Part shown: piece after piece, positions 6,301-59,331 of the stretch
How positions within the stretch are numbered: position 1 is the stretch's first letter
How the letters are laid out: every line of letters begins with the position of its first letter
Assembly: GCA_963844965.1 (NCBI GenBank)
Contig: CAWJQC010000009.1
Coordinates: 62,037-126,036 of the forward strand
Origin: an uncultured bacterium
GTDB lineage: Bacteria > Patescibacteriota > Minisyncoccia > UBA6257 > 2-01-FULL-56-20
Direction: 5' to 3'
DNA length: 64,000 nucleotides
Notes under the pieces: generated by a model
Database searches by the model: none
What the model was told of the DNA's origin: nothing
What the model saw: only the letters and a program-made list of their open reading frames with translations
Position numbers and translations under genes: made by a program

Positions 6301-8118
6301 TTAGCAGTACCTTGTCGCCGTCAAAAATTCCCGCATAATGGCGGCCTGTCCCACCGGACCCATCGGGAGCTTGCCATATACATACCCGCCTTTAGCTGAA
6401 TTTTGAATTGTTAAATATTGAATTGTGCTGTTTTTTGCCCCCACTACTGTATTCCCGGTATTACTACCGTCTATTATTGTTTTATTTTCATCTTCTCCGT
6501 AAATACTAACTCCATCTTTTAGCACAACATTTTCATAATAAGTACCGTCGGCTATTTTAATATTATCTCCGCTTTGAGCGGCGTTTATTGCCGCTTGAAT
6601 TGTTGGATAATCGGCTGGCACATTAATGACATTTTGCAATTGCGTAGAAAAAGATTTTTGATCGCTCGTAGCCGTATTACCACTTTTATCAGAAGCGTTT
6701 ATTTTATAATTATAAATTGTCCCCGGTAATAATCCTGTAACAGAAATACTGTGGCTCGTTGAAAGCGTGGAATCAGATAATACTAATACGTCATAATCTC
6801 CAAAGGGAGAATATGATAATTGGATGGTACTGGGTTCGTCTGTTGTGAGTGAAATCACCGCAGAATTTGTGGTTGTATTAGATGATTGGATATTAGATAT
6901 TACGGGTGGCATGCTATCGCAAGAGGTCGTCTCGTCAGGTTTTCCAGTAGTAATTCCACAATGCATCAAATCGTTGCAGGTTCGTGTTTGTTGAGAATTT
7001 GCACAAGTGCTCCATGAGCCACATTGCCAGTTAGGAGTACACGTACATGATTGCGTCAAAGCCGGTTCTCCGGTTGAAACGCCGCAACTGTTTGAATCGT
7101 TGCAGGTTCGTGTTTGCATAGAATTCAAGCAGGTGTTCCAATTTGTGCATTGCCAATTTGGGGTACAATTAACCGTTGTTGAACAACTGGTAGTTTGAGT
7201 TTGCCCGCCAAAATTAACAGTAAGATTGGCTGTTTTAGTACCTGCTTGAGAAAAAGAATTTGAACAGCTTGATTTAGACCCAACACAATCACCAGTCCAA
7301 GAATAAATATAAGTACCAGTTCCTCCTAAAATTGCGACAGAGGAAGAAAATGTTACCGATTGGTTTGTTTGGTATGAGTTTGAATTTGCCGAACAAGAAA
7401 CGGAAAGCGTTGCTGTGGGCGGAGTGCACGATTGAGTTAAAATTGGCTCTCCGGTTGCAACTCCACAATTATTTGAATTGCTACAAGTCCTCATTTGTTG
7501 GGAATTTGCACAAGTGCTCCATGAGCCACATTGCCAATTTGGAGTACATGCTGGTGGCGTAGTATTTTGTTGAATTTGCTGAAGCGTTTGATTTGTTTGC
7601 TGTTGGGCCGCTAACTGTTTTTGCAACAAGGCAACCTGCTGCAGAAGTGCGCTCAATTGCGACTGCAGTGAATTATTAATGTCATTCGTAGTTGCGGGCG
7701 GCGTTGGAGTTGGCGGCGTTGAACTGGTTTCCGCAATCGCCTGCGCGTTGGATGCCGAAAGCTGTTGCGACAATATCGCGTTTGCTGCCGTTCTTGTGAG
7801 CGGCCCGAAATATCCCGCGGGTGGCGTTATGTCTTGAGTAGTTTGGAATTGCTTGACCCCCGCGAGCGTCAAAGAAAAGAAATTGCCGCTGATTGGGCCG
7901 GAATATACGCCTTGAGATGTAAGAAATTCTTGGAGCTTGGTAACGTCGGAATCGCCCTGTATGCCGAAATATAAATCTTTTGTGAATAAGGTTTGCGCCT
8001 TGACCACTGGAATACCAAAGGAAGCCACGAGAAGAACTGCGATAACAAATTTTTTCATATTCATTTTCATTGTTTTCATGGCACTCTTTTTTCTAACGAA
8101 CAACATTAACCATCGCAC
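6301..8118 (-). CDS. secreted cell-surface protein: signal peptide, peptidoglycan-binding-like domain, Q-rich coiled coil, 4 tandem Cys-rich modules, right-handed beta-helix C-terminus; C-terminus probably extends to about 6060 through a frameshift
   Basis: The likely start is the internal MKKFVIAVLLVASF signal peptide. LQEFLTSQGVYSGPISGNFFSLTLAGVKQFQ is a PG-binding-like motif. CTPNWQC(G/T)(S/N)W(S/N)TC.NS.Q.RTC repeats four times. In another frame, rc of 6060..6300 reads NNIQNNGDGIFDANTIMYNTIHDNNGTYSTGIF, which is more beta-helix repeats. The N-terminal 200 aa are paralogous to 42233..44319. Confidence 0.6.
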   Translation of the reverse strand: MRWLMLFVRKKSAMKTMKMNMKKFVIAVLLVASFGIPVVKAQTLFTKDLYFGIQGDSDVTKLQEFLTSQGVYSGPISGNFFSLTLAGVKQFQTTQDITPPAGYFGPLTRTAANAILSQQLSASNAQAIAETSSTPPTPTPPATTNDINNSLQSQLSALLQQVALLQKQLAAQQQTNQTLQQIQQNTTPPACTPNWQCGSWSTCANSQQMRTCSNSNNCGVATGEPILTQSCTPPTATLSVSCSANSNSYQTNQSVTFSSSVAILGGTGTYIYSWTGDCVGSKSSCSNSFSQAGTKTANLTVNFGGQTQTTSCSTTVNCTPNWQCTNWNTCLNSMQTRTCNDSNSCGVSTGEPALTQSCTCTPNWQCGSWSTCANSQQTRTCNDLMHCGITTGKPDETTSCDSMPPVISNIQSSNTTTNSAVISLTTDEPSTIQLSYSPFGDYDVLVLSDSTLSTSHSISVTGLLPGTIYNYKINASDKSGNTATSDQKSFSTQLQNVINVPADYPTIQAAINAAQSGDNIKIADGTYYENVVLKDGVSIYGEDENKTIIDGSNTGNTVVGAKNSTIQYLTIQNSAKGGYVYGKLPMGPVGQAAIMREFLTATRYC

Positions 8119-13092: not shown

Positions 13093-13165
13093 TTGTTCAC
13101 TCGCAAGAATACCCTATACCTTCTTGCAACGTGATGAGAAGGTGTAGGGATGAATTGCGATGTGT

Positions 13166-13350
13166 GAATAATAAACCCCTCCCCATTTGTGGCAGGGGTT
13201 TGGTGATAACACCCAGCGAGAGCCGTAAGGCGACTTCGTCTTTGTATGTCGTGTGCGCATAGTTTTTGCGGCAAATGGAGAGGGGTGAATAACCGCAAGA
13301 CCGCAGAGCGGCTTGGATACCGCACCGCTCTGCGGTGCGGTTATTCATTT
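13166..13350. repeat. structured intergenic repeat, family 1, copy A (about 185 nt, two long imperfect hairpins)
   Basis: gaataataaacccctccccatttg...caaatggagaggggtgaataaccgc...accgctctgcggtgcggttattcattt. Copy B is at 39175..39358. The hairpin arms are conserved and the interior has diverged. Confidence 0.6.
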
Positions 13351-13394
13351 TCTTTTCGGGAAAAAGGTGGCGATAGCAGGTTTAGTGGCCCAAA

Positions 13395-13730
13395 CTACGC
13401 CGCCGTTTTCATGTAATCGTTGTATGCCTGCCTGATCAAGTCGGTCGCAATCTCGCTCCTCGGTTTTGTCCGGCCCGGATACCGCCAGGCGCTGATAATC
13501 CTGCGGCGGGTTTTCGCGTCCTGGATCATCGTCCAGAGTTCATAGGGATGCTTTTTGCTGCCTCTGACCTGCATATAGGCGACCGTTCTCGGCGCGATCC
13601 CCTCTTCCACGCGCGCCGGTGAGTGGAGAATATTTTTCACCCGCTGTTCCGACAGACCGTAAAACCGCATCTTGGAACGCACGTGATTGGTCCAGTACAA
13701 AATTCTCGGCTTATTGATTATAAGCGGCAT
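13395..13730 (-). CDS. hypothetical protein; weak resemblance to BrnT/RelE-like toxin C-terminus (RRIISAWR)
   Basis: 111-aa ORF. The assignment is tentative and rests on memory of BrnT ...RIISAR.... Confidence 0.3.
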   Translation of the reverse strand: MPLIINKPRILYWTNHVRSKMRFYGLSEQRVKNILHSPARVEEGIAPRTVAYMQVRGSKKHPYELWTMIQDAKTRRRIISAWRYPGRTKPRSEIATDLIRQAYNDYMKTAA

Positions 13731-29767: not shown

Positions 29768-30370
29768 GTGAAATTACTGAAGAGGGTTGATTCGCTGGAA
29801 GTCAAACGCTGTTTTGTCGTATCGCAATACGGAAGGGGCAGGAAAGATAAAAGGGACATACCGACGTTCACCAAGCGAGCGTTCGCAAGAAGACTGAGTC
29901 GGGCGAAAAATTGGGCCAAAAAACTTTCCCAAAAACAACTGGATCGCATCATCGCCTCCGATTGGAAGCGCCGCCTCCGCGCTTACGATAGCGCCAGCTG
30001 GTGGCTAGGACAAGTAAATATAAACGAAGTCGGAGTATGGAGACGTGCCGGCGGCCTGCCGCTCTCCTGGACTAATTGCTCGCTTCAAGAAACGGCGAAA
30101 AAAGTCGCGAAAGCCCTTCCGGCTGGAGGCCGCTCAAGCGCCTTAAAAACGATACCAAAAATTTTGAAAACCTCAATTGGCTTCGTGCAAAAAGAAAAAT
30201 TACTGTTTCCGATCGTTTTTCAGGGTGGCACTGGCACGCGAGGCAGAAAGGGGTTGAAAAAAATGCGCGGCGACATTGATAACGGCTGCATGAGGGCTAT
30301 CGCGCTCGCTATGACGGGCAAAAAATCTTTTAAGGCGTATATCGGTGTCAAGCTTCAACCTCACAACTAA
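29768..30370 (+). CDS. hypothetical basic protein
   Basis: 200-aa ORF with no motif recognised. Confidence 0.35.
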   Translation: MKLLKRVDSLEVKRCFVVSQYGRGRKDKRDIPTFTKRAFARRLSRAKNWAKKLSQKQLDRIIASDWKRRLRAYDSASWWLGQVNINEVGVWRRAGGLPLSWTNCSLQETAKKVAKALPAGGRSSALKTIPKILKTSIGFVQKEKLLFPIVFQGGTGTRGRKGLKKMRGDIDNGCMRAIALAMTGKKSFKAYIGVKLQPHN

Positions 30371-31665
30371 AATCTGTCCCCGATAAACGCTCTGCCGCGC
30401 AGTTTTTTGTGATAGCTTATCGCAAAGCGGTGGGCTTCGTTCCTGACTCTTACGAGCGTGTTTTTGCTTACGCCGCGCGGGATTTCGCCGATTATGTCGT
30501 TGCGCTTGCGCTCTGGGCCCTTGGCGATGCCAACTATAGGAATTTTCAGTCCGAATTCCGCGAGCACGCTCTTCGCGGCGTTCACCTGTCCCCTGCCGCC
30601 GTCAATTAAAATCAAGGCGGGCAATGGCCAATTATTATGGAAGCGCCGGCGCAAAATTTCTTTGAGCATGCCAACATCGTCGGATTGAGTTATGGTTCTG
30701 ATTCTGAATTTACGGTATTCGTTACTGTCGGGTTCATTTCTGCTGAACACAACCATAGAGCCGACGGCCGAAGTGCCGGAGATATTGGAGATGTCATAAC
30801 CCTCGACTCTCGTGGGTGGTAGGTGGCGAGTAGTAGGTAGTAGGTCGGAATCAGAGATCAGGGCAACGTCGCGGATGTGCTGCAACGCGAAAATCTGGCG
30901 ACGGAATTTTTCGGCTTTTTCAAATTCAAGGTTTTTGCTTGCGGCGGTCATCTCTTTTTCCAGATTCCGCAGAATCTGTTTTTTCTTGCCCCCGAACAAC
31001 AATTTGAGATTTCTGATGTTTTTCATATAATCCCCGCGGCTTATCGCGCCGATGCACGTGCCAGGGCAAAGCCCCAGTTCGTATTCAAAACATGGACGCC
31101 TGCGGCTCAACCAACCCGAAGCAACAAATTTATCCGAATGCTCCGAATTTTTATTTGTAGATTCGGATGTAATCCGTAGTTTCGGATCGCACGCATCGGC
31201 ATGAGTGCTCCACGGAAAAATCCGCCGCAGGATTCGTAACGCCTCGCGGATGCTTGACGCCGAAGTAAACGGACCATACTGCTTCGCCGCTGACTTACGC
31301 GGACTAGACGCAGACTTAACTTCTCGTCCACGGACGAGCAGCACACGCGGGAATTTTTCTTTTGTAATTTCCACGTACAAAAAACTTTTATCATCCCGTT
31401 CGCGCACATTGAAGGGCGGCGAGTATTTTCTTATAAGCTCCGCCTCCAAAATCAACGCTTCAAGCGCCGTATCGGTTTTTCTATGGTCAATTTTTTTGAT
31501 TTTTCCGACCAATGTTTCAATGCGCGTGTCGTGCGCCCGCATGAAATAACTTGAAACCCGCCGGCGCAAATTTCCAGCCTTGCCGACATAGAGAATATGG
31601 CCGCCTCCGTCCCTGAACAAATAAACGCCCGGCTCGTCGGGCAGGTTTTTATACGAATTATCCAT
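30367..31665 (-). CDS. uvrC: excinuclease ABC subunit C (UvrC), short form lacking C-terminal HhH pair
   Basis: GIY-YIG N-terminus GVYLFRDGGGHILYVGKAGNLRRRVSSYF, then the UvrC homology region and the endonuclease region ...NEAHRFAISYH. Confidence 0.85.
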   Translation of the reverse strand: MDNSYKNLPDEPGVYLFRDGGGHILYVGKAGNLRRRVSSYFMRAHDTRIETLVGKIKKIDHRKTDTALEALILEAELIRKYSPPFNVRERDDKSFLYVEITKEKFPRVLLVRGREVKSASSPRKSAAKQYGPFTSASSIREALRILRRIFPWSTHADACDPKLRITSESTNKNSEHSDKFVASGWLSRRRPCFEYELGLCPGTCIGAISRGDYMKNIRNLKLLFGGKKKQILRNLEKEMTAASKNLEFEKAEKFRRQIFALQHIRDVALISDSDLLPTTRHLPPTRVEGYDISNISGTSAVGSMVVFSRNEPDSNEYRKFRIRTITQSDDVGMLKEILRRRFHNNWPLPALILIDGGRGQVNAAKSVLAEFGLKIPIVGIAKGPERKRNDIIGEIPRGVSKNTLVRVRNEAHRFAISYHKKLRGRAFIGDRF

Positions 31666-31674
31666 TAATTTATT

Positions 31675-32733
31675 TTAATCCTCTTTCTCGCTGTGAAACA
31701 GGAAATCCAGAAACTTTTCGCCAAACGTCTTGGGAAGTTCAGGGTAACCGGTCGCCCTCCTTATCTCGCGCAGATGCAGTCTTGTCTCTTCGGCCCCGAT
31801 GCCGATGATCTCCCGCGCGCTGCCGAAGCTGAAGGTGCCAAAACCAAAGATCTGCGGCTTAATGACCACGTCCGCCTGCTTCAGTATGTTCTTGGCGAGC
31901 TGATACTCAACGATGCCCAGCGAGCTTGAGATAGCGGCATACATGCTTTTTGTATCTATCGCCTCGTCCGGCGAATCAGCCCATCGCGAAGAAACGTCAA
32001 CGGCTATAACATATTCAGCACCCATTTCCCTCACAATGTCCGCCGGCACCGGATTCACGAGGCCGCCATCCATCAGTAATTTGCCGCCGGCTTCAACTGG
32101 ACTGAAAATCAACGGCAGGGCGATGCTCGCATCCACGGCATCCATCAACTTACCGCTCTTCAAGATCACCTCATCCCCATTTCTCGCGTCAGTGGCCACG
32201 GCCACGAAAGGAACTTTACAATCCTTAAAACTAAGGTTATGGAATGACGATTTCAGCAAGTGGCTCACGGAATCGCCCTTAAAGAGCGCGCCTTTTTTAT
32301 GCCTCAGCATCTCCGTAACCGGGAAAATCTCGCGTGGCTTGATCTTTAAAAACAAATCTTCCAGAAATTCTATGTCTTCCGTGGCTGCGTACCAGGCGCC
32401 AACGAGCGCGCCCATGCTGGTTCCCGCAATAAAATCAATGGAGATGCCGGCGTTTTTTAAAACCTTAATAACGCCGATGTGCGCCAGACCCTTGGCTCCG
32501 CCGCCGCCGAGAGCGAGCCCCGTAGTGAGCCGAGCACCTCTTTTTTCTTTGCGCACCCGCGACAAGTTCATGATTTTTTTATAGGAATACGCACGACACA
32601 AATTCCAAATAGAACAAAACTGGCCAGTGCTCGGTCTACTACGGGGCGAGACCGATTTTTTTCGTTTTGGGTGCTTTGGCCATGCCGACCGATGTTCAAT
32701 CGCCCAGAAGCACGTATACCGCGCATTTGCCAA
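31675..32733 (-). CDS. patatin-like phospholipase
   Basis: GLALGGGGAKGLAHIGV is the oxyanion motif. AGTSMG is the GxSxG motif. MDGGLVNPVP is the DGG motif. The likely start is the internal MNLSRVRKEK. Confidence 0.8.
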   Translation of the reverse strand: MANARYTCFWAIEHRSAWPKHPKRKKSVSPRSRPSTGQFCSIWNLCRAYSYKKIMNLSRVRKEKRGARLTTGLALGGGGAKGLAHIGVIKVLKNAGISIDFIAGTSMGALVGAWYAATEDIEFLEDLFLKIKPREIFPVTEMLRHKKGALFKGDSVSHLLKSSFHNLSFKDCKVPFVAVATDARNGDEVILKSGKLMDAVDASIALPLIFSPVEAGGKLLMDGGLVNPVPADIVREMGAEYVIAVDVSSRWADSPDEAIDTKSMYAAISSSLGIVEYQLAKNILKQADVVIKPQIFGFGTFSFGSAREIIGIGAEETRLHLREIRRATGYPELPKTFGEKFLDFLFHSEKED

Positions 32734-39174: not shown

Positions 39175-39358
39175 GAAATAATAAACCCCTCCTCATTTGT
39201 GGCAAAAATTGCGCCATCGCAATATCAGAGCCGTAGGGCGACTTCGTCTTCGTATGGTGCATATGCATAGATTTTACAGCAAATGGGGAGGGGTGAATAA
39301 CCGCTTGACCACAGGGCGTTGCGGATATCACACCGCTCTGCGGTGCGGTTATTCATTT
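39175..39358. repeat. structured intergenic repeat, family 1, copy B
   Basis: gaaataataaacccctcctcatttg...caaatggggaggggtgaataaccgc...caccgctctgcggtgcggttattcattt, same orientation as copy A. Confidence 0.6.
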
Positions 39359-39475
39359 GTGTTTCCGCATTGCGTTCCTCGCTCCGGAGATCTTCAGATA
39401 TTTCCTGTAACGGAAACTGGACGGCGTGCGATATGCCGGTTTCCCTTGGCGATTCCCAACTTTGGCGTAATTTTT

Positions 39476-39596
39476 CATCCCGTTAGAAGCAGGTCACGGT
39501 CATACCGCTCCCGCATAAATTTGCTATTTTACCAAGTTTTATATAAAGCATCAGATAATCTCTTGCCGCAACGCGACCGCGGCTTCTAACGGGATT
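39476..39596. repeat. MITE-like element, family 2, copy 1 (about 121 bp, about 20-bp terminal inverted repeats ATCCCGTTAGAAGC...)
   Basis: catcccgttagaagcaggtcac ... gaccgcggcttctaacgggatt. Copy 2 is at 57419..57542. Confidence 0.55.
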
Positions 39597-39733
39597 TTGC
39601 TTTCAAATGTTTAAAGAATTCTATTTGTTTTAGGCGTTTTTTCGCCTCATCCAGCGTTTTGTATGTTCCGAATTTCCGGCTGGTTGTTTCCGACAACACT
39701 ACATATTTACCTTTAATTTTTTTAATCATTTAT

Positions 39734-42232: not shown

Positions 42233-44319
42233 TTACTGACTCGCTGTGAGCGTGAGTACGTTTCCCGTCGCACCGCCCGATGAGGCTGACGTGCTCGAGG
42301 TCAGGCCCTGCAAGTTCGCCGTGCTCTCGGCGACAAGAGCGCCGACGACAGAAACGAAGCTGGCAGTTGACTTGATGTCGGCCTTAAGCGAGAGAACGCG
42401 GGTCGTGTTCGCCGGGAGTATGTAGTTGATCGGCGAAGTGTTCGTACCGAAACAGTCAACATAGACACCGCTCGTCGCGCCCGAAGCGCCGTTCGTCGTA
42501 CAAGTGTTGCCACTCGGAGGCGTATTGATGGTCGTGCCGAACTGGCCGCCAGCGTCGTCGATTATGGCGACGTTGCCGATCTGATAGGGCAACATCGCGC
42601 TCGTAAGCGTTGAGGAGCCGAAGGTGAGCTTGAAGTCAAGGAATTTGACTTTCACCGCTTCGCCGCCGGCGTAGAACGCGAACTTGGCGATAGTCACACC
42701 GGACTGACCCGGACCAAGTTTCCGGTCGGGGTGTCACCGGACTGCGAAATGGAAACCTGAAGAGCGAGCGGTCCGGCAATCGTGATGTTCTGACCGGAAA
42801 CCGCATTTGTGATTGCGATTATGCCAGAAGATATCGCGCCTATTCCCGAAAGGCCCGTAAGAATCGTCGCCGGAGAAACCGATGTGCTCATCGGTGCCGA
42901 GGATGAAATGTCCGCGTAAACATTCACGTAAACGGTACCACCAGCAGGAACCGTGAATGGCGTGCCTGAAAATGTATAACTCGTTCCCACGGCCACCGTA
43001 CCTTGCGTTAAACCAAACTGGACACCATTAACCGTAATCTTCAAGTTCTGAAACAGCGACCCAGAAAATACATTGGAATTGCCAGCTTGGATGCTCACAT
43101 TATTTATCTTTACGCTCTCAACAGAAGATGCCGTCAAAGCATATGAACCGATTTTAGCGTTAAATGATCCGGGGACGACGGTCAGCGACCCAAGACCGTT
43201 GTTCTGCGCAACCGTCAAGCTGCCAATTGGTGCGGCCTGCGTCGTGAACGAATACTCAACGCTTACCCCCTCGTTGCCGTTGTTGTCCGTTGAAGCGACT
43301 TTAAAGTAGTAGGTCGTGCTAAAGTTCAAATTCGATAGCGCAACGCTGTGCGTGTAGCTGCCGCCACTGGAAACCGTCCCCGCGTTACTGACCGGAGCGA
43401 AGTAAGACCCGGATATCGTTCCAAAATACACCTCGCTGTTCCCGTATTCATTTGTCGTCCACGTGATGGTTGCCGCATTTTGGGTGACATTTATCGCCTG
43501 CACATTTGTTATGACAGGCTGGTTGTTGCCCGTAGAAACAGGTTGCGTAACCGAGACGTTCACGGTTACGCTCGCCGACACGGAACCGCCCGCACCGGAA
43601 CACGAGAGGGAATATGTTTGCGAGGTAGTAAGATTGCCGGTGCTTTGATTACCCGAAGTGCCTGACCATCCAGAAGGAGAGACATTGCAGTAATTGGCGC
43701 TTGTCGAACTCCATGTGATTATAGCAGCGGTGTCATAGGGAATGGCGACCGAGCCTGCGGAGCTGTTCGCCATAATACTCGCCGTAGGTACTGGCGTCGA
43801 TTGCGGAGACGGCGTTGTATTCTGCTGAATCTGCTGGAGGGTCTGATTTGCCTGCTGTTGTGCCGCTAACTGCTTCTGTAATAGGGCGACTTGTTGCAGG
43901 AGCAAATTCAGTTGCGCCTGCAGAGAATTATTAATGTCATTCGTAGTTGCGGGCGGCGTTGGAGTTGGCGGCGTTGAACTGGTTTCCGAAATCGCCTGCG
44001 CGTTGGATGCCTGAAGCTGTTGCGACAATATCGCGTTCGCTTTTGCTCTTGTAAGCGGGCCGAAATATCCCGCGGCCGGGGTTATGCCTTGGGCAACCTG
44101 AAACTGTTTGACTCCCGCGAGCGTCAGGGAAAAGAAATTGCCGCTGATTGGTCCGGAGTATACGCCTTGAGACGTTAGAAATTCCTGGAGTTGCTTAACG
44201 TCCGAATCTCCTTGGATTCCATAGTAGAGGTCATAGTCAAATGTTTGCGCAAAAACCCGAACGCCGCCGCACAGAAAGAGTGTGACAGCCAACACCAAAA
44301 CCAAGTATCTTTTTTTCAT
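42233..44319 (-). CDS. secreted cell-surface protein, paralog of 6301..8118 (shared N-terminal 200 aa), Fn3/Ig-like Thr/Ser-rich repeats; two ORFs joined at a GTGA overlap
   Basis: MKKRYLVLVLAVTLFL signal peptide, the same PG-binding-like and Q-rich coiled-coil region, then a variable C-terminus. ORF 42233..42697 starts at a GTG that overlaps the TGA of 42694..44319. Confidence 0.6.
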
Positions 44320-52336: not shown

Positions 52337-52547
52337 TCAAACGGACCTCCAAAAATCCGGAGCTTACAGGAATATAATGCTCTTTCCCCGAATTATCAAT
52401 GATTTTCATAATCCCCTCTTTCAAAACCGAAACCAGCGGCTCGTGGTCGTCCAAAACAGTGATCTCGCCGCTCTCGGTCTTGCAGTTCACTGACTGCGCT
52501 TCACCTTGGAAGAGAATCTTTTTTAAGGAATAAATGCCCAAACGCAT
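52290..52547 (-). CDS. atpC: F-type ATP synthase epsilon subunit
   Basis: 85 aa. LDDHEPLVSVLKEGIMKI...VSSGFLEV has the beta-sandwich pattern of epsilon. It sits directly downstream of atpD. Confidence 0.75.
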   Translation of the reverse strand: MRLGIYSLKKILFQGEAQSVNCKTESGEITVLDDHEPLVSVLKEGIMKIIDNSGKEHYIPVSSGFLEVRLNDAKFIIEEGGTSNA

Positions 52548-52636
52548 AAGAATTTCTAATATCTAATTTCTAATTGACCCAATCAAATCCGGTTGGCTAT
52601 TAATTAGAAATTAGGTTAATTAGGTTAATTAAAAAT

Positions 52637-54987
<2,351 letters not shown>

Positions 54988-55025: not shown

Positions 55026-55502
55026 CTATTTTTTCTTAGTGATAAATCCATAAAGATTTCTAAGATATCCTCGATCTTGCCCAAAGGACATCTTTTTGCT
55101 TAATCCAAGAAACTTTATTATTTCCTTATCAGATTTGCCAGCTTCGCGCATTTTCCTTGTAATCTTAATTATATTTATCTGATCATATTTAGATTTCTTA
55201 TAAAGATTTACAATTCCCAAAATCACACAACCCATTCCGGAATGTTTAATTAGATTGCACATTCCACAAATTGTCTGCAGGTTTTTTTGTTTGTTATTAT
55301 TGGGATTGCCATCAATATGATCAACGATTTGCCCTTTGAAACTTTGGAAGCCGCAATACTGGCAGGTATACTCATCGCGATCTAAGATTTTCAACCGTAA
55401 AGATTTCCATTCCTTAAAATTCAATTTTTTCTTCTCTTCTTGATTGCGCCACGTTCTCGGAGGTGCAAATGAAGGAAAAAAGTTTTTGTTATTACTCGCC
55501 AT
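55026..55502 (-). CDS. HNH endonuclease inserted between atpA and atpG
   Basis: CQYCG...IVDHIDGNPNNN..NLQTICGMCNLIKH is the HNH motif set. Same strand as the operon, and 13 and 38 nt from the neighbouring genes. Confidence 0.8.
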   Translation of the reverse strand: MASNNKNFFPSFAPPRTWRNQEEKKKLNFKEWKSLRLKILDRDEYTCQYCGFQSFKGQIVDHIDGNPNNNKQKNLQTICGMCNLIKHSGMGCVILGIVNLYKKSKYDQINIIKITRKMREAGKSDKEIIKFLGLSKKMSFGQDRGYLRNLYGFITKKK

Positions 55503-55516
55503 AGCGCCTTTTAAAT

Positions 55517-57040
55517 TTATTTCAAAAAGTGCGTGATTGCCGCTTTTAGTTTTTCTTCTATCTCCGGCGTCAGTTCCCCTTTTGTTTTTATCGGATTCAA
55601 AACGTCTTCGGCGTGGAATTTCTTCATATATTCAAGAAAGTCGGCTTCCGTTTTTTTCACCTCGTCCGCGGAAAATTTCTCAAAGTAGCCGTTCAAAACA
55701 GCGTAGAAAACGACGACCTGTTCCTCTACCGGCAACGGCGCTTGGTCCTCCTGTTTCAGGATTTCCATGATTATCTGCCCCTCGTGGATGCGCTTCTTCG
55801 TCGCTTCATCAACGTCGGAAGCGAATTGCACGAAAGCCCGCAGTTCGCGGAATTGCGCGAGTGATAGCCGCAATTTGCCGGCGACTTTTTTCATCGCTTT
55901 TGTCTGTGCCGCCGAGCCCACGCGCGAAACGGAAAGTCCGACATTCACCGCCGGCCGGATACCTTGATAGAACAGATCGGACTCCAGATATATTTGGCCA
56001 TCGGTGATTGAAATGATATTTGTAGGAATATACGCCGTGACGTCGCCGAGCTGAGTTTCCACGATGGGCAGTGCCGTGAGCGAGCCGCCGCCTTTTTCCT
56101 TGGACATTTTCGCGGCACGTTCCAAAAGACGGGAGTGCAGGTAGAAAATATCTCCAGGATACGCCTCACGGCCTGGTGGACGGCGCAAGAGCAAGGAAAT
56201 CTGTCTGTAAGCCCAAGCATGCTTTGATAAATCGTCATAAATCACAAGCGCGTCATCGCCTTTATCCCGAAAATATTCCCCTATTGCCGCTCCGGCGAAA
56301 GGCGCGAGATACCACAACGCCGCCGGCGACGAAGCGGACGCGGAAACGACAATTGTATATTTCAAAGAATCAAATTTTTTCAGCGTCTCCACGATCTTCG
56401 CCACCTTGGATTCCTTCTGGCCGACAGCGACGTAAATGCAAACCGGCAATTTTCTGGCTTTGTCAGAACCTTGGTTGATAATTGCGTCAAGCGCGAGGGC
56501 AGTTTTACCGGTCTGCCTGTCGCCAATGATAAGCTCGCGCTGGCCGCGGCCGATGGGAATCATGGAATCAATGGATTTCAAGCCAGTGTGAAGCGGCGTG
56601 GAAACCGGCTCGCGCTCAAGAACCGACGGCGCTCTGTTTTCAAGAAATACCCGCGTGGACTTTGAGCCAGCCGAGAAGATAGGGCCGCGGCCGTCAAGCG
56701 GATTGCCCAAGGGATCAACAACTCTTCCAAAAAGTCCGTCACCGACCTCAAGAGAAAGCACCTGTCCCGTTCCCTTCACCACGTCGCCGCTCGCGACCGC
56801 GCCAGCGTCATCCAACACCAAGGCACCCACGGTGTCTTCCTCAAGATTCAGAACAAGAGCCCGGCGTTCGCCTTCCGTAGTTTCTATAGTCAATATCTCC
56901 TGGCTAAGCGCTTTCGCGAGACCGGTAATTTTCACGATGCCGTCTCCCGCCTCGGTCACGCGGCCAATATCTTCCCACTTCGCGGAGTCCTTGTAACCCT
57001 CAATTTCCTTTTTTAATTTTTCTATAATATCAAAACTCAT
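55517..57040 (-). CDS. atpA: F-type ATP synthase alpha subunit
   Basis: The protein is 507 aa. The Walker A motif is GDRQTGKTAL. The sequence is typical of alpha subunits throughout. Confidence 0.95.
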   Translation of the reverse strand: MSFDIIEKLKKEIEGYKDSAKWEDIGRVTEAGDGIVKITGLAKALSQEILTIETTEGERRALVLNLEEDTVGALVLDDAGAVASGDVVKGTGQVLSLEVGDGLFGRVVDPLGNPLDGRGPIFSAGSKSTRVFLENRAPSVLEREPVSTPLHTGLKSIDSMIPIGRGQRELIIGDRQTGKTALALDAIINQGSDKARKLPVCIYVAVGQKESKVAKIVETLKKFDSLKYTIVVSASASSPAALWYLAPFAGAAIGEYFRDKGDDALVIYDDLSKHAWAYRQISLLLRRPPGREAYPGDIFYLHSRLLERAAKMSKEKGGGSLTALPIVETQLGDVTAYIPTNIISITDGQIYLESDLFYQGIRPAVNVGLSVSRVGSAAQTKAMKKVAGKLRLSLAQFRELRAFVQFASDVDEATKKRIHEGQIIMEILKQEDQAPLPVEEQVVVFYAVLNGYFEKFSADEVKKTEADFLEYMKKFHAEDVLNPIKTKGELTPEIEEKLKAAITHFLK

Positions 57041-57046
57041 ATGAGA

Positions 57047-57421
57047 TTACGCGAATATTTTTTGAAGCTTGCACGCGAGCGAACCGTCGTATTGCCGTTC
57101 GCCATCCTTTATAATTTTCACGCCCGCAACCACCGAGGATATTATCTTCTCTTCCAGAACATCCGTGGACCCCACAAGATTGTTGAACAAGCCACGCGCG
57201 TCTTTGAGCGGCCTAGCCGACTCAAACGTCCATTTGCTGCGGCTGCTCTGCTTCAGCAAAAATTTTTCGGCGAGGACCGAAATCTTCCCGATTTGGCGCA
57301 TGTCGCCGTTTTTCGCGATAAGCGCGAGAAAATTTTTTATCACAAACTCCTCGCGCTCTTCCGGAGTCCGCGCGGCTACCTCGGCGAATGCTTTGGCATA
57401 TGTTTGTGGGGAATATTTCAT
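57047..57421 (-). CDS. atpH: F-type ATP synthase delta (OSCP) subunit, short
   Basis: MKYSPQTYAKAFAEVAAR is a typical delta N-terminus. The C-terminal pattern is ...GVKIIKDGERQYDGSL. Its ATG is formed by the terminal GGGATG of the MITE-like element. Confidence 0.7.
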   Translation of the reverse strand: MKYSPQTYAKAFAEVAARTPEEREEFVIKNFLALIAKNGDMRQIGKISVLAEKFLLKQSSRSKWTFESARPLKDARGLFNNLVGSTDVLEEKIISSVVAGVKIIKDGERQYDGSLACKLQKIFA

Positions 57422-57542
57422 CCCGTTAGAAGCAGATCGCAATCGGCGACCTGCACAAAAATTTGTTTGATTTGCGATGATTGTTTATTCATTTATAAAA
57501 ATTTCATAATTATTCTAAGCGATCGCGGCTTCTAACGGGATT
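57419..57542. repeat. MITE-like element, family 2, copy 2, inserted exactly between atpF stop and atpH start
   Basis: catcccgttagaagcagatcgc ... gatcgcggcttctaacgggatt. The last nt is the first nt of the atpF TGA, and the first three nt are the complement of the atpH ATG. Confidence 0.6.
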
Positions 57543-58036
57543 CATATGACTTCTTTGATTGCCTTTTGTATCAAAGCATCATCAATCTTATCCGGTGAGA
57601 GTTCCACGGTCTTTATAATCGCGTCTTTCACTAGTTTTGCCGCTTCTTTTTTCATCAAGAGCCGCGACTCCTCCTCTTTACTCCGTAAAAGCACTTCGGT
57701 TCGCTTCAGCTCTTCGGTCTCCTTTCTCTTGGCTTCGGCCAGAAGTTCCGCCTCCGTTTTTTTCGCCCTTTCCTCCGTGGCACGGAGGATATTCGTGGCC
57801 TCTCCCTCGGCCTCCTTCAATTTCTCCTTGCCGATCTCTTCTATCTGGTTCAGCCGCTCGTCCGCTTCCTTGGCTTTGGCCAACCCTTCTTCAACCTTTG
57901 CCTTGCGCTCCTTCAGGATTCGAACAACCGGTTTATAAACGAAGAAACGTAAAATCAGAAGAAGTATCAAAAAATTGACCGCCTGGCTCGCAAGCGATCG
58001 CCAATCAATACCAAGTTGACTGATAAGATCACTCAT
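57542..58036 (-). CDS. atpF: F-type ATP synthase b subunit
   Basis: N-terminal TM helix followed by a long charged E/K-rich coiled coil. It sits between atpE and atpH. Confidence 0.8.
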   Translation of the reverse strand: MSDLISQLGIDWRSLASQAVNFLILLLILRFFVYKPVVRILKERKAKVEEGLAKAKEADERLNQIEEIGKEKLKEAEGEATNILRATEERAKKTEAELLAEAKRKETEELKRTEVLLRSKEEESRLLMKKEAAKLVKDAIIKTVELSPDKIDDALIQKAIKEVI

Positions 58037-58136
58037 TAGAACGCGATCCGAAACTACGAATATATCCTAATGCTCCGAATTGGTTTTTGGAATTTTATTC
58101 GGGTCATTCGGATGAAATTCGGATTTTTCGGATTGC

Positions 58137-58367
58137 TTACTTTACGAACTTGATAATCAGAGCGACGACCAGGGCATAAATGGCGATGGCTTCCGCGAAG
58201 GCGATTGCCAGAATCATCGCTGTCTGGATTTTCGGCGCCGCTTCTGGATTCCTGCCGATGGCGTCGGCCGACTTGGGACCGATGAGTCCGATCGCGACAG
58301 CCGGGGCGATCGTGCCCACAGTGATCACGGCCATCGTGGCCAGCAATCTTATTGATTCAATATCCAT
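58137..58367 (-). CDS. atpE: F-type ATP synthase c subunit
   Basis: 76-aa two-helix hairpin. GRNPEA loop. The proton-carrying E is in FAEAIAIYALVVAL. Confidence 0.9.
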   Translation of the reverse strand: MDIESIRLLATMAVITVGTIAPAVAIGLIGPKSADAIGRNPEAAPKIQTAMILAIAFAEAIAIYALVVALIIKFVK

Positions 58368-58599
58368 ACTTTAATTAATTTCTAATTTCTAACATCTAAA
58401 CGACCCTACGACCTTTTGTATTTAATCCTAATTTTCTATTTTCTGCTTAGTGCGCCGCCTCGTGCCCAGTAGTAGACCGAGCACTGCAACGCTCCCACGC
58501 TTTCTTCTGCTACAAACTTGGCACTGGCAAATTCTTTGTTATTTCTCATAATTATTGGTTTTGCCCTGTAGCGTTGTAGAAAATGATGTGCTCGGCTCA

Positions 58600-59331
58600 C
58601 TACTGGGCGTGTTCCGTCGTCGCTATCGCCACGAATACAAGCGCGAGCATTGAAAATATAAATGCCTGAATGAAACCAACAAAAATCTCCAGAAACAAAA
58701 ATGGCAGGGGTACAACGAACGGGACGAGAAAGGCGATGATCGTAAGAAGTACCTCGCCGGCAAACACATTCCCAAACAACCTGAACGAGAACGATATAAT
58801 CTTAGCAAATTCGGAAATAAGCTCAAGTATGCCGATGAAGAATTCGATCGGCCCTTTAAAGTTGAAAAATTTGGAAAGGTGCGCTTTCGCACCCACGACC
58901 GCTATGCCGATGATATTCACGGTGAAAACCGTTATTAGCGCCAAAGCCAGCGTGAAGTTCAGGTCGCTAGCCGGAGAACGCAGAAACGGCACGAATTCAC
59001 CATTTTCCCGCAATCCCAGGGACCCCACGCCGGGCAGAAGACCCAACCAGTTGGATGTGATAATGAAGAGAAAAATCGTGGCAATAAGCGGCAGGTACCT
59101 CTCCGATTTTTCGCGTTTTATGAGCACCGAATCCATAATGCCGAGCATTCCCTCTATGATCATTTCAACAACGTTCTGCATTTTGCCGGGAACCAGCGCG
59201 AGGCGACGCCGCAAGGAAACGGAAATAACGGTCAAAAGCAGAACTGCGAGCATGGCCATGAAGACCGTGTTCGTGACCGGAAAACTACCTATATGAAAAA
59301 TTGGCTCGGCGCGCAATGAAATGTGGAGCAT
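58600..59331 (-). CDS. atpB: F-type ATP synthase a subunit
   Basis: 243 aa, polytopic. The conserved Arg region is ...SFSFRLFGNVFAGEVLL. It is the first gene of the operon. Confidence 0.8.
   Translation of the reverse strand: MLHISLRAEPIFHIGSFPVTNTVFMAMLAVLLLTVISVSLRRRLALVPGKMQNVVEMIIEGMLGIMDSVLIKREKSERYLPLIATIFLFIITSNWLGLLPGVGSLGLRENGEFVPFLRSPASDLNFTLALALITVFTVNIIGIAVVGAKAHLSKFFNFKGPIEFFIGILELISEFAKIISFSFRLFGNVFAGEVLLTIIAFLVPFVVPLPFLFLEIFVGFIQAFIFSMLALVFVAIATTEHAQ

Follow-up and report, generated by a model that had tools for sequence, protein, structure and literature searches.

Closest described systems

The subject of this report is a 120-bp inverted-repeat element located between atpF and atpH, the genes for the b and delta subunits of ATP synthase, in a 64,000-nucleotide stretch of DNA from an uncultured bacterium of the Patescibacteriota (contig CAWJQC010000009.1). 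The whole stretch is referred to as the window, and the family of the element as family A. Its closest published analogue is the mycobacterial interspersed repetitive unit (MIRU), reportedly described by Supply et al. in 1997. According to a passage of a 2025 review (PMC12548453), MIRUs are apparently mobile, with insertions at start codons, and contain an open reading frame (ORF) coupled to the host gene with a spacing of -4, which minimises the effect on expression; a passage in PMC3184786 adds tetranucleotide direct repeats and empty sites. Family A shares with them the insertions at start codons within operons, the 4-nt repeats, the empty sites and the coupled small ORF. MIRUs, however, are GC-rich units of 40-100 bp, often in tandem arrays, with at most imperfect terminal repeats and no known coding partner, and they are confined to mycobacteria, whereas family A has perfect, covarying hairpin arms of 14-20 bp, AT-rich interiors, a superphylum-wide distribution and a form that codes for a GIY-YIG protein. 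Sequence homology between the two is unlikely in view of composition, host phylum and the mostly single-copy sites of family A.

Other small repeats offer partial parallels. Correia/NEMIS, RUP, Nezha and ERIC elements are described in a passage of PMC3184786 as small, multi-copy and co-transcribed, with terminal inverted repeats, target-site duplications (TSDs) and long RNA hairpins, and without a transposase. Size, terminal repeats, TSD, copy number and RNA hairpin are all shared by family A. Those elements use TA or other short targets, are mostly intergenic, occur in either orientation and derive from DDE-type insertion sequences, whereas family A is nearly confined to start codons, keeps to one orientation and uses its own terminal base to restore the ATG. 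Compared with integron attC sites, family A has similar imperfect inverted repeats, an AAC/GTT core, an unpaired internal spacer, a second paired box, a variable loop and a similar total size; unlike attC, its boxes are ordered GTTAGA...TCTAAC, on either strand, rather than RYYYAAC...GTTRRRY, it lacks an integrase or array context, and it is flanked by duplications.

Free-standing GIY-YIG homing endonuclease genes, such as seg and mob of phage T4 and the fused ORFs of fungal mitochondria, are selfish genes that are wedged between or fused to host genes and expressed by the host. They have a separate DNA-binding domain, home to one cognate allele and have neither terminal inverted repeats, TSDs nor miniatures. 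In contrast, the 275-bp form of family A described below encodes a bare 94-aa UPF0213/Slx1-like domain, and the element is found in hundreds of different genes. The Rickettsia palindromic elements (RPEs) and the yeast-mitochondrial byp elements are palindromic mobile inserts tolerated in expressed genes through compatibility with translation: RPEs are translated in frame within the host protein, and byps are skipped by ribosome hopping. Family A differs from both in that it lies just upstream of the ORF and is apparently traversed by separate mini-ORFs.

We read the atp element as a non-autonomous transposable element of the miniature inverted-repeat type (MITE), belonging to a start-codon-parasitic GIY-YIG element family of Patescibacteria, functionally similar to MIRUs, and place the probability of this reading at about 0.7. 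No description of the family was found in the open-access literature, with the arm sequence included as a query; the subscription literature lay outside the search, and the family is apparently undescribed.

An inverted-repeat element between atpF and atpH

The 14-mer ATCCCGTTAGAAGC occurs exactly four times in the 64-kb window, forming two inverted pairs (57420-57433 with 57528-57541, and 39477-39490 with 39582-39595); other window matches carry three mismatches, which corresponds to chance level. In the atp copy the pair constitutes a perfect 14-nt inverted repeat, ATCCCGTTAGAAGC against GCTTCTAACGGGAT. Past an internal loop of 1 nt on one arm and 3 nt on the other, a further 6-bp helix was observed in both window copies, GATCGC/GCGATC in the atp copy and GGTC.C/G.GACC in the second, with a compensatory change from G-C to A-T between them. 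The original prediction, made from the window sequence, had reported two copies with shared inverted termini, which are recovered here as these perfect arms with their inner helix. It had also called the interiors unrelated. This holds for alignment, since the global identity of 61% does not exceed that of shuffled sequences (mean 57%, maximum 65%), but the interiors are not featureless, as their mini-ORF design is conserved. The long mRNA stem that had been proposed agrees with the predicted RNA folds, which reach -40.2 kcal/mol in the atp copy (z = -5.0, equalled by none of 200 shuffles) and -49.0 kcal/mol in the second copy (z = -5.3).

The atp copy is flanked by a 4-bp direct repeat, TTCA on the plus strand and TGAA on the coding strand. 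This repeat corrects the proposal that the element contributes a base of the atpF stop codon: the TGA is native and lies wholly within the repeat at 57541-57544. The accompanying claim that the element supplies the atpH start codon is right for the A of the ATG, while the TG comes from the target duplication. On the coding strand the 5' arm holds a TAG in one frame. Because the 3' arm is open in frame with the host gene, mechanical ORF calling runs atpH up to a TTG inside the element (57047-57442; MRSASNG-MKYSPQ...).

Element-free junctions in related atp operons

Related atp operons were reached through AtpH and AtpA homologues. In the closest of them (L146; loci are cited by L numbers), whose AtpA is 83% identical, atpF and atpH overlap in ATGA (...GCAAAATGAAATATTCTCC; also ...AAAATGAAATATTCTCC) and no element is present. 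The atpF-atpH spacer measures 5 nt in L120 (...AAATAATAATTATGAAATAT), 22 nt in L147 and 47 nt in L122/123, in each case without the element, and the junction of L121 likewise lacks it. The coding-strand flanks in the window read ...GTCATATGAA / T-CCCG...CGGG-A / TGAAATATTCC. When the element and one TGAA are deleted, the sequence becomes ...CATATGAAATATTCC, a junction as in L146, and the corresponding empty-site DNA would be ...GGAATGAAA.... The N-terminus of AtpH, MKYSPQ, aligns with MKYSPK and MKYKAQ of the relatives. Taken together, these junctions show that the atp element is an insertion into a former ATGA stop/start overlap of atpF and atpH. Two further inverted-repeat elements of the window operon, at the end of atpB and in the atpE-atpF spacer, are also absent from these relatives.

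Distribution, target and orientation of family A

Species-representative genomes were scanned with the pattern CCCGTTAGAAGC-N75-105-GCTTCTAACGGG, which gave at least 119 loci beyond the window, with up to four family-A copies within 8 kb. The hosts are nearly all metagenome-assembled genomes labelled Patescibacteria, Saccharibacteria, Paceibacterota, Nomura-, Kaiser-, Levy-, Jorgensen-, Taylor-, Zambryski-, Lipton-, Sung-, Terry- or Moranbacteria, or Microgenomatus, and a few of the listed loci come from other phyla. The AtpA relatives of the window are similarly named Patescibacteria, Minisyncoccia, Paceibacterota and Liptonbacteria. The scan of viral contigs gave no match to the family-A element.

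Among the copies listed, an ATG directly follows ...CGGG, on one side only, in 101 of 125. The ORFs headed by this ATG have a median length of 212 aa; the 95 proteins scanned match 115 Pfam families, and the host genes include those for SSB, trigger factor, aminoacyl-tRNA synthetases, DnaA, topoisomerase, PGK and MraW. They are functionally unrelated and do not form a regulon. The asymmetry of the internal loop, with 3 nt on the 5' arm and 1 nt on the 3' arm, places all 101 copies but one (L003) in the same orientation to the host gene.

CCCG is preceded by T in 100 of these 101 copies, and CGGG is followed by A. In 70 of the 101, the start codon opens a repeat of 4 nt or more. Where the upstream repeat contains ATG, the next two bases agree in 51 of 57 cases (AA/AA, GA/GA, AG/AG, TA/TA and CG/CG), and permuted pairs agree much less often; in L003, L046, L051, L056 and L142 the upstream repeat is GTGNN or TTGNN but the downstream one ATGNN. 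Copies away from an ATG show clean 4-bp repeats such as TCTG, TAAA, CATA and CATG. Duplications are most often 4 bp long and vary from 3 to 5, clearly exceeding permuted controls, and the TGAA repeats at 57417-57420 and 57541-57544 accord with this family-wide pattern. In the simplest model, an element T-CCCG...CGGG-A would insert with a 4-bp duplication, usually TGNN, its terminal A completing the new ATG. Tandem or nested copies share a single spacer (L025, L045, L056), which in L025 and L045 is exactly one ATGAAT or GTTGAC.

The arms vary in a coordinated manner. Among the 73 copies in canonical register, position 2 of the inner helix is G-C in 36, A-T in 36 and G-T in one, and positions 3 and 4 change in a similarly compensatory fashion. 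When all collected loci were scanned with the 8-nt core CCGTTAGA...TCTAACGG, 168 elements were identified. The three bases after the core vary among AGC, AGT, AAT, GAC, GGC, GAT, GAA, GAG, TAT, GGT and AAG, and this triplet is complementary between the arms in 38 of the 41 non-AGC copies, most of which also lie at an ATG or CAT. The termini T-CCCGTTAGA...TCTAACGGG-A are conserved, and later arm positions vary only complementarily. Covariation of this kind points to a stem that is under selection for pairing. By its arms, the window element is best classed as the AGC/GCT variant of a superphylum-wide family whose full-length form is predicted to code for a protein.

A sub-family with the same arms but C...G as terminal bases was observed in L006, L019, L036, L066 and L077 (99-103 nt) and in L044, L045, L090, L091 and L093. 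It duplicates TTGA, TTCA, TTTA or TCAA and mostly lies away from an ATG. The 99-103-nt members have a common GC-rich interior, AGAAYGYCCCGCGGC...CGGGGTYTAATGC, and could represent a distinct structured form. Separately, sequences between distant arm matches were considered as candidates for a transposase-sized element; the best of them (L089 2091-3567) and the others proved to be chance matches with 1-3 mismatches inside ordinary genes.

A 275-bp form encoding a GIY-YIG nuclease

Near family-A copies, two loci contain elements of 275 bp (Table 1), flanked by ATGAAT and ATGAAA in one case and by ATGGT and ATGGAC in the other. Each holds one ORF without a start codon of its own: reading opens at the duplicated host ATG and closes at a TGA that shares bases with the host ATG. 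The ORF product starts with MNPVRDDEYYYVYVL..., and ...KNRLKRFLSLTG precedes the stop. The product is a 94-aa UPF0213/Slx1-like GIY-YIG nuclease; among solved structures, BH0048 and EF2693, both UPF0213 proteins, and SLX1 come closest to it.

A protein search with this ORF returned 2295 clusters at E <= 1e-8. The best 120 of these are 93-95 aa long, match Pfam GIY-YIG (PF01541), are named "GIY-YIG nuclease family protein" and come from Patescibacteria, Minisyncoccia or Parcubacteria. Nearly all of the 120 begin with MNPVR. and end with FL.LTG, so that the arms constitute the first and last codons of the nuclease ORF. Residues 6 and -4 covary as base-pairing predicts in 98 of 101 proteins (D/S 84, A/A 11, G/P 2, E/S 1), with three exceptions. 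In every genomic context examined (L138-L145 and L148-150), the nuclease stop overlaps the start of the next gene by 4 nt, and in L142 the stop of the upstream gene also overlaps the nuclease GTG. Short forms with GAC and GGC arms share the whole arm with long forms, and the 9-nt termini and the TSD geometry are common to both. Neither window copy contains a GIY-YIG ORF.

An identical GIY-YIG protein at several loci was also sought, with P0030 (204 index blocks) as the case; it lay at the same locus in all samples read. In L057 (5541-5783) and L058 (2993-3223), small UPF0213-type GIY-YIG ORFs without arms end at or run into tRNA genes, which suggests that a sister group of this nuclease prefers other targets.

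Mini-ORFs and translational coupling

The window copies contain only mini-ORFs of at most 24 aa, and in the atp copy three of them follow one another from the atpF stop to the atpH start (Table 1). Across the family, 52 of 101 copies have a sense-strand ORF of 15-28 codons that starts with ATG and ends at the TAA of the 3' arm (GCTTC-TAA-CGGG-ATG), 4 nt before the host ATG, and in a further seven the mini-ORF stop is a TGA overlapping the host ATG. Antisense mini-ORFs were found in only 6 of 101, close to the 6.3 (maximum 13) of shuffled interiors. We also counted relays that begin at the duplicated upstream ATG, allowing re-initiation up to 12 nt from each stop. In 33 of 78 copies such a relay extends as far as the host ATG, compared with 9.05 in shuffles (maximum 15), and a single ORF spans the whole element in 17 of 78, compared with 4.2 (maximum 9). 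Among the 35 operon-internal copies, the upstream ORF ends at the arm TAG in 14 and at the TGA of the old ATGA in 15. The interiors therefore appear to bear a conserved translational design, as if built for ribosomes to read through to the host gene.

Passages in PMC6728339 and PMC10666635 state that translational coupling requires overlaps or very short distances. The window atpH has no Shine-Dalgarno sequence, and the same holds in relatives, where the gene lies 0-5 nt from atpF, so that termination-reinitiation is its probable mode of translation. In the proposed mechanism, ribosomes ending on atpF would re-initiate through the three mini-ORFs, melting the 14+6-bp stem, and would then re-initiate on atpH, with b-delta coupling surviving the insertion. 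We infer that such a relay preserves this coupling, and the complete relay of the atp copy lends support to the original suggestion that the element may reshape it. A leaderless promoter in the 3' arm was considered and rejected, the sequence having no acceptable -10 box. No tRNA genes are present.

Table 1. Coordinates of the family-A copies, their host genes and mini-ORFs, and the 275-bp relatives. Positions are those of the window unless a locus is named.
Feature	Position	Strand	Remarks
Family-A element, atp copy	57421-57540 (120 bp)	minus (sense strand is the atp strand)	T-CCCGTTAGAAGC ... GCTTCTAACGGG-A; termini and geometry match 123 copies elsewhere
atpF (ATP synthase b subunit, 164 aa), upstream host gene	57542-58036	minus	operon annotation of relatives
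atpH (delta/OSCP, 124 aa), host gene with targeted start codon	57047-57421	minus	Pfam OSCP
atpB	58600-59331	minus	
atpE	58137-58367	minus	
atpA	55517-57040	minus	
Upstream TSD copy, TGAA on coding strand	57541-57544	minus	holds native atpF stop TGA; preceding A plus TSD gives a duplicated "decoy" ATG
Downstream TSD copy, TGAA	57417-57420	minus	TG plus terminal A of the element (57421) gives the atpH start codon
atpH-side arm (mRNA 3' arm)	57420-57440		outer helix strand 57420-57433 (14 nt), 1-nt loop 57434, inner strand GATCGC 57435-57440
atpF-side arm (mRNA 5' arm)	57519-57541		inner strand GCGATC 57519-57524, 3-nt loop 57525-57527, outer strand 57528-57541
Mini-ORF 1, MNPVRSRDRLE then stop	57510-57545	minus	starts at duplicated ATG overlapping atpF stop (ATGA); reads through 5' arm
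Mini-ORF 2, MKFL then stop	57493-57507	minus	start 2 nt past mini-ORF 1 stop
Mini-ORF 3, MNKQSSQIKQIFVQVADCDLLLTG then stop	57418-57492	minus	directly after mini-ORF 2 stop; reads through 3' arm; TGA overlaps atpH ATG (ATGA)
Family-A element, second copy	39478-39594 (117 bp)	minus	between 47-aa ORF and 41-aa ORF
47-aa ORF upstream of second copy	39586-39729		stop is the TAG within the 5' arm
41-aa ORF downstream of second copy	39353-39478		ATG abuts the 3' arm
Mini-ORF of second copy, MLYIKLGKIANLCGSGMTVTCF then stop	39483-39551		stop is the TAA in the 3' arm, 4 nt before host ATG
275-bp element	L038 2986-3260		arms CCCGTTAGAGAC...GTCTCTAACGGG; near family-A copies
275-bp element	L050 6655-6929		arms CCCGTTAGAGAC...GTCTCTAACGGG; near family-A copies

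Interpretation and alternative explanations

Family A displays the structural hallmarks of a MITE, as far as sequence can tell, with terminal inverted repeats, TSDs, small dispersed copies and both filled and empty sites; the exception is a conventional transposase partner. The MITE-like nature proposed in the original prediction is thus borne out by the further copies, the duplications, the empty junctions in relatives and the predicted stem. In the mechanism that we propose, the GIY-YIG protein would mobilise the long forms, and the short forms would be moved in trans. Branched or hairpin DNA is the substrate of Slx1-type enzymes, so that this protein could plausibly cut at the target or where the extruded arms meet the duplex. 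Microhomology-templated copying into a break at another start codon would explain the variation of the repeats between 3 and 5 nt, and a staggered cut would explain their 4-nt mode. The near-exclusive sense location at start codons would be expected if the autonomous form can be expressed only where the host provides a ribosome-binding site and a start codon, with insertions elsewhere being purged; it could in part be an ascertainment effect of the exact-arm search.

A more far-reaching claim is that a hitherto unrecognised class of bacterial DNA elements is mobilised by the bare 94-aa UPF0213/Slx1-type nuclease. Such elements would have hairpin-forming repeats and a 4-bp duplication but no promoter, ribosome-binding site or start codon of their own; they would integrate at host start codons, be translated by host-initiated ribosomes and hand the ribosome back, and their ORF-less miniatures would occur in hundreds of essential genes across Patescibacteria. 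We advance this claim tentatively, at somewhat less than even odds.

Several observations weigh against the GIY-YIG-MITE reading. To our knowledge, no GIY-YIG nuclease serves as a transposase, and the GIY-YIG fold does not typically produce a 4-nt stagger; the varying length of the duplication is a further difficulty. No full-length GIY-YIG element with the exact AGC/GCT arms of the window was seen among the loci, and blastn between the interiors of MITEs and GIY-YIG elements gave chance-level matches of 11-15 nt (11 weak plus-strand against 7 minus-strand), so that short and long forms are linked by their termini, geometry and host range. The metagenome scan gave no match to the exact empty-site allele GAAGTCATATGAAATATTCCCC, and thus no strain-level empty allele. 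The TSD of the second window copy is imperfect (TTCA at 39474-39477, TTTT at 39595-39598). About 40% of the copies have no obvious mini-ORF, and the relay is complete in only 42%. Finally, the sample was drawn with exact 12+12-nt arms and may favour conserved, selected copies, which would inflate the association with start codons.

One alternative is an ordinary DDE-transposase MITE, in which an unseen insertion sequence (IS5- or IS1380-like, for instance) moves the short and the 275-bp forms alike and the GIY-YIG ORF is cargo or a passenger. A 4-bp duplication next to terminal inverted repeats is the classical mark of DDE elements; family B, an unrelated family of the window, resembles family A in its CCC...GGG termini and has clean TSDs of 4 bp whose sequence is arbitrary, and the lack of interior homology between short and long forms would also fit. 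However, no transposase-sized element with these arms was found in about 1 Mb of loci, the long form has no room for another gene, and the orientation is fixed relative to the host gene. In thousands of proteins, moreover, the GIY-YIG reading frame includes the arms, which covary with it, and we regard this explanation as unlikely.

The spacing of the tandem copies invites a different reading, in which the element is a cassette moved by a site-specific recombinase, like IMEX or integron cassettes. A circle with joined ends, GCTTCTAACGGG-ATGNAT-CCCGTTAGAAGC, would present a dif/lox-like core of 12-nt inverted arms around a 6-bp spacer, on which a host tyrosine recombinase acting at start-codon regions could operate, the apparent TSD being the overlap region. 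The single ATGAAT or GTTGAC between tandem copies fits this, as do arms kept across deep lineages, which would suit a conserved host enzyme, and folded arms with an internal loop and a second box, as in attC. But the GTT/AAC boxes run in the reverse order to attC, and the duplicated segment, 3-5 nt long, is variable in both length and sequence, with an invariant T and A next to the arms. An integrase is neither linked to the elements nor seen among the window ORFs examined, and the only protein encoded is the GIY-YIG nuclease. This makes a recombinase cassette improbable.

The strength of the fold, well beyond shuffles, the compensatory stem changes and the start codon at the base of the stem could equally be expected of a host regulatory RNA that is not mobile, such as an RNase III site, a thermometer or a translational operator. 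Such a structure is hard to reconcile with host genes of unrelated function, with target duplications, with orthologous sites that are empty in relatives, with tandem and nested copies and with a nuclease-coding full-length form. The whole window gave no Rfam match at the gathering score, and 57380-57580 gave only chance-level hits at E <= 10; we consider this explanation very improbable. An inverton, in which the inverted repeats are invertase sites that flip an AT-rich promoter segment, can practically be dismissed: conserved repeats around divergent AT-rich interiors do resemble invertons sharing one invertase, but about 100 of 101 copies have the same orientation to the host gene, the interiors hold sense-strand ORFs instead of promoter boxes, and the atp element lies inside an operon at a former zero-length junction.

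Other elements in the window

A second MITE family, family B, has the termini CCC[C/A]GTAGTAGACCGAGCAC...GTGCTCGGCTCACTAC[G/T]GGG and two window copies, at 32518-32646 and 58465-58607, with clean 4-bp TSDs of CGAG and CGTG. The former splits the N-terminus of a patatin-like gene: reading from the old start at 32683 now ends at a TAG in the arm, and a new in-frame reading through the arm begins at an ATG (32571) within the element. The latter cuts atpB four codons before its inferred stop. Fourteen further copies of family B were identified in metagenomes (L124-L137), some of them in tandem. A third element, C, is an inverted repeat rich in CGGAT/ATCCG that fills the atpE-atpF spacer (58046-58136) and is absent there in L120. 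Its second copy, at 31116-31190, lies within the uvrC ORF (30367-31665), where it separates the GIY-YIG domain from the UVR domain and may be an in-frame insert.

Within the atp operon, an ORF for a 158-aa HNH-type endonuclease lies between atpA and atpG (55026-55502). Related operons carry a PD-(D/E)XK ORF between atpG and atpD, or an unannotated 189-aa ORF after atpA (L146 3696-4097; L147 3057-3626). In these bacteria, selfish nuclease genes seem to have landed in the atp operon repeatedly. The atpD-atpC spacer (52536-52690), an AT-rich stretch of about 95 nt with AATTAGAAATTAG repeats, is bounded by the inverted repeat AGAATTTCTA/TAGAAATTCT, with one arm in the last atpD codons and the other just before the atpC ATG, and may be another element with the same life-style.

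Around the second family-A copy, a repeat of about 190 nt was observed at 39227-39365, just downstream of the 41-aa ORF, and again at 13219-13357; it comprises a strong palindrome, GAATAACCGCACCGCAGAGCGG...GCGGTTATTC, followed by a leader-like stretch ending in GGGGAGGGG. The paralogous repeat at 13150-13620 was considered as an empty site for the second copy and rejected, because the alignment corresponds to this different, downstream repeat. In addition, a 300-nt direct repeat with 84% identity is present at 7556-7855 and 43811-44110.

Significance for Patescibacteria

A family of start-codon-parasitic GIY-YIG elements with MIRU-like miniatures would explain a large share of the small genes annotated as "GIY-YIG nuclease family protein", together with unexplained hairpin spacers in the operons of Patescibacteria. 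It would represent a second, independent and much more widespread case of the MIRU strategy, in which coupling is preserved in gene-dense genomes, and it would come with a candidate enzyme. If the GIY-YIG protein does mobilise these elements, a nuclease fold would join the short list of enzymes of prokaryotic DNA transposons, in the form of a very small insertion module that seeks start codons. The elements would also affect annotation through false small ORFs, false N-terminal extensions such as the atpH ORF with its TTG start at 57442, and seemingly long intergenic spacers. Their copies would provide natural test cases for termination-reinitiation across a stable stem.

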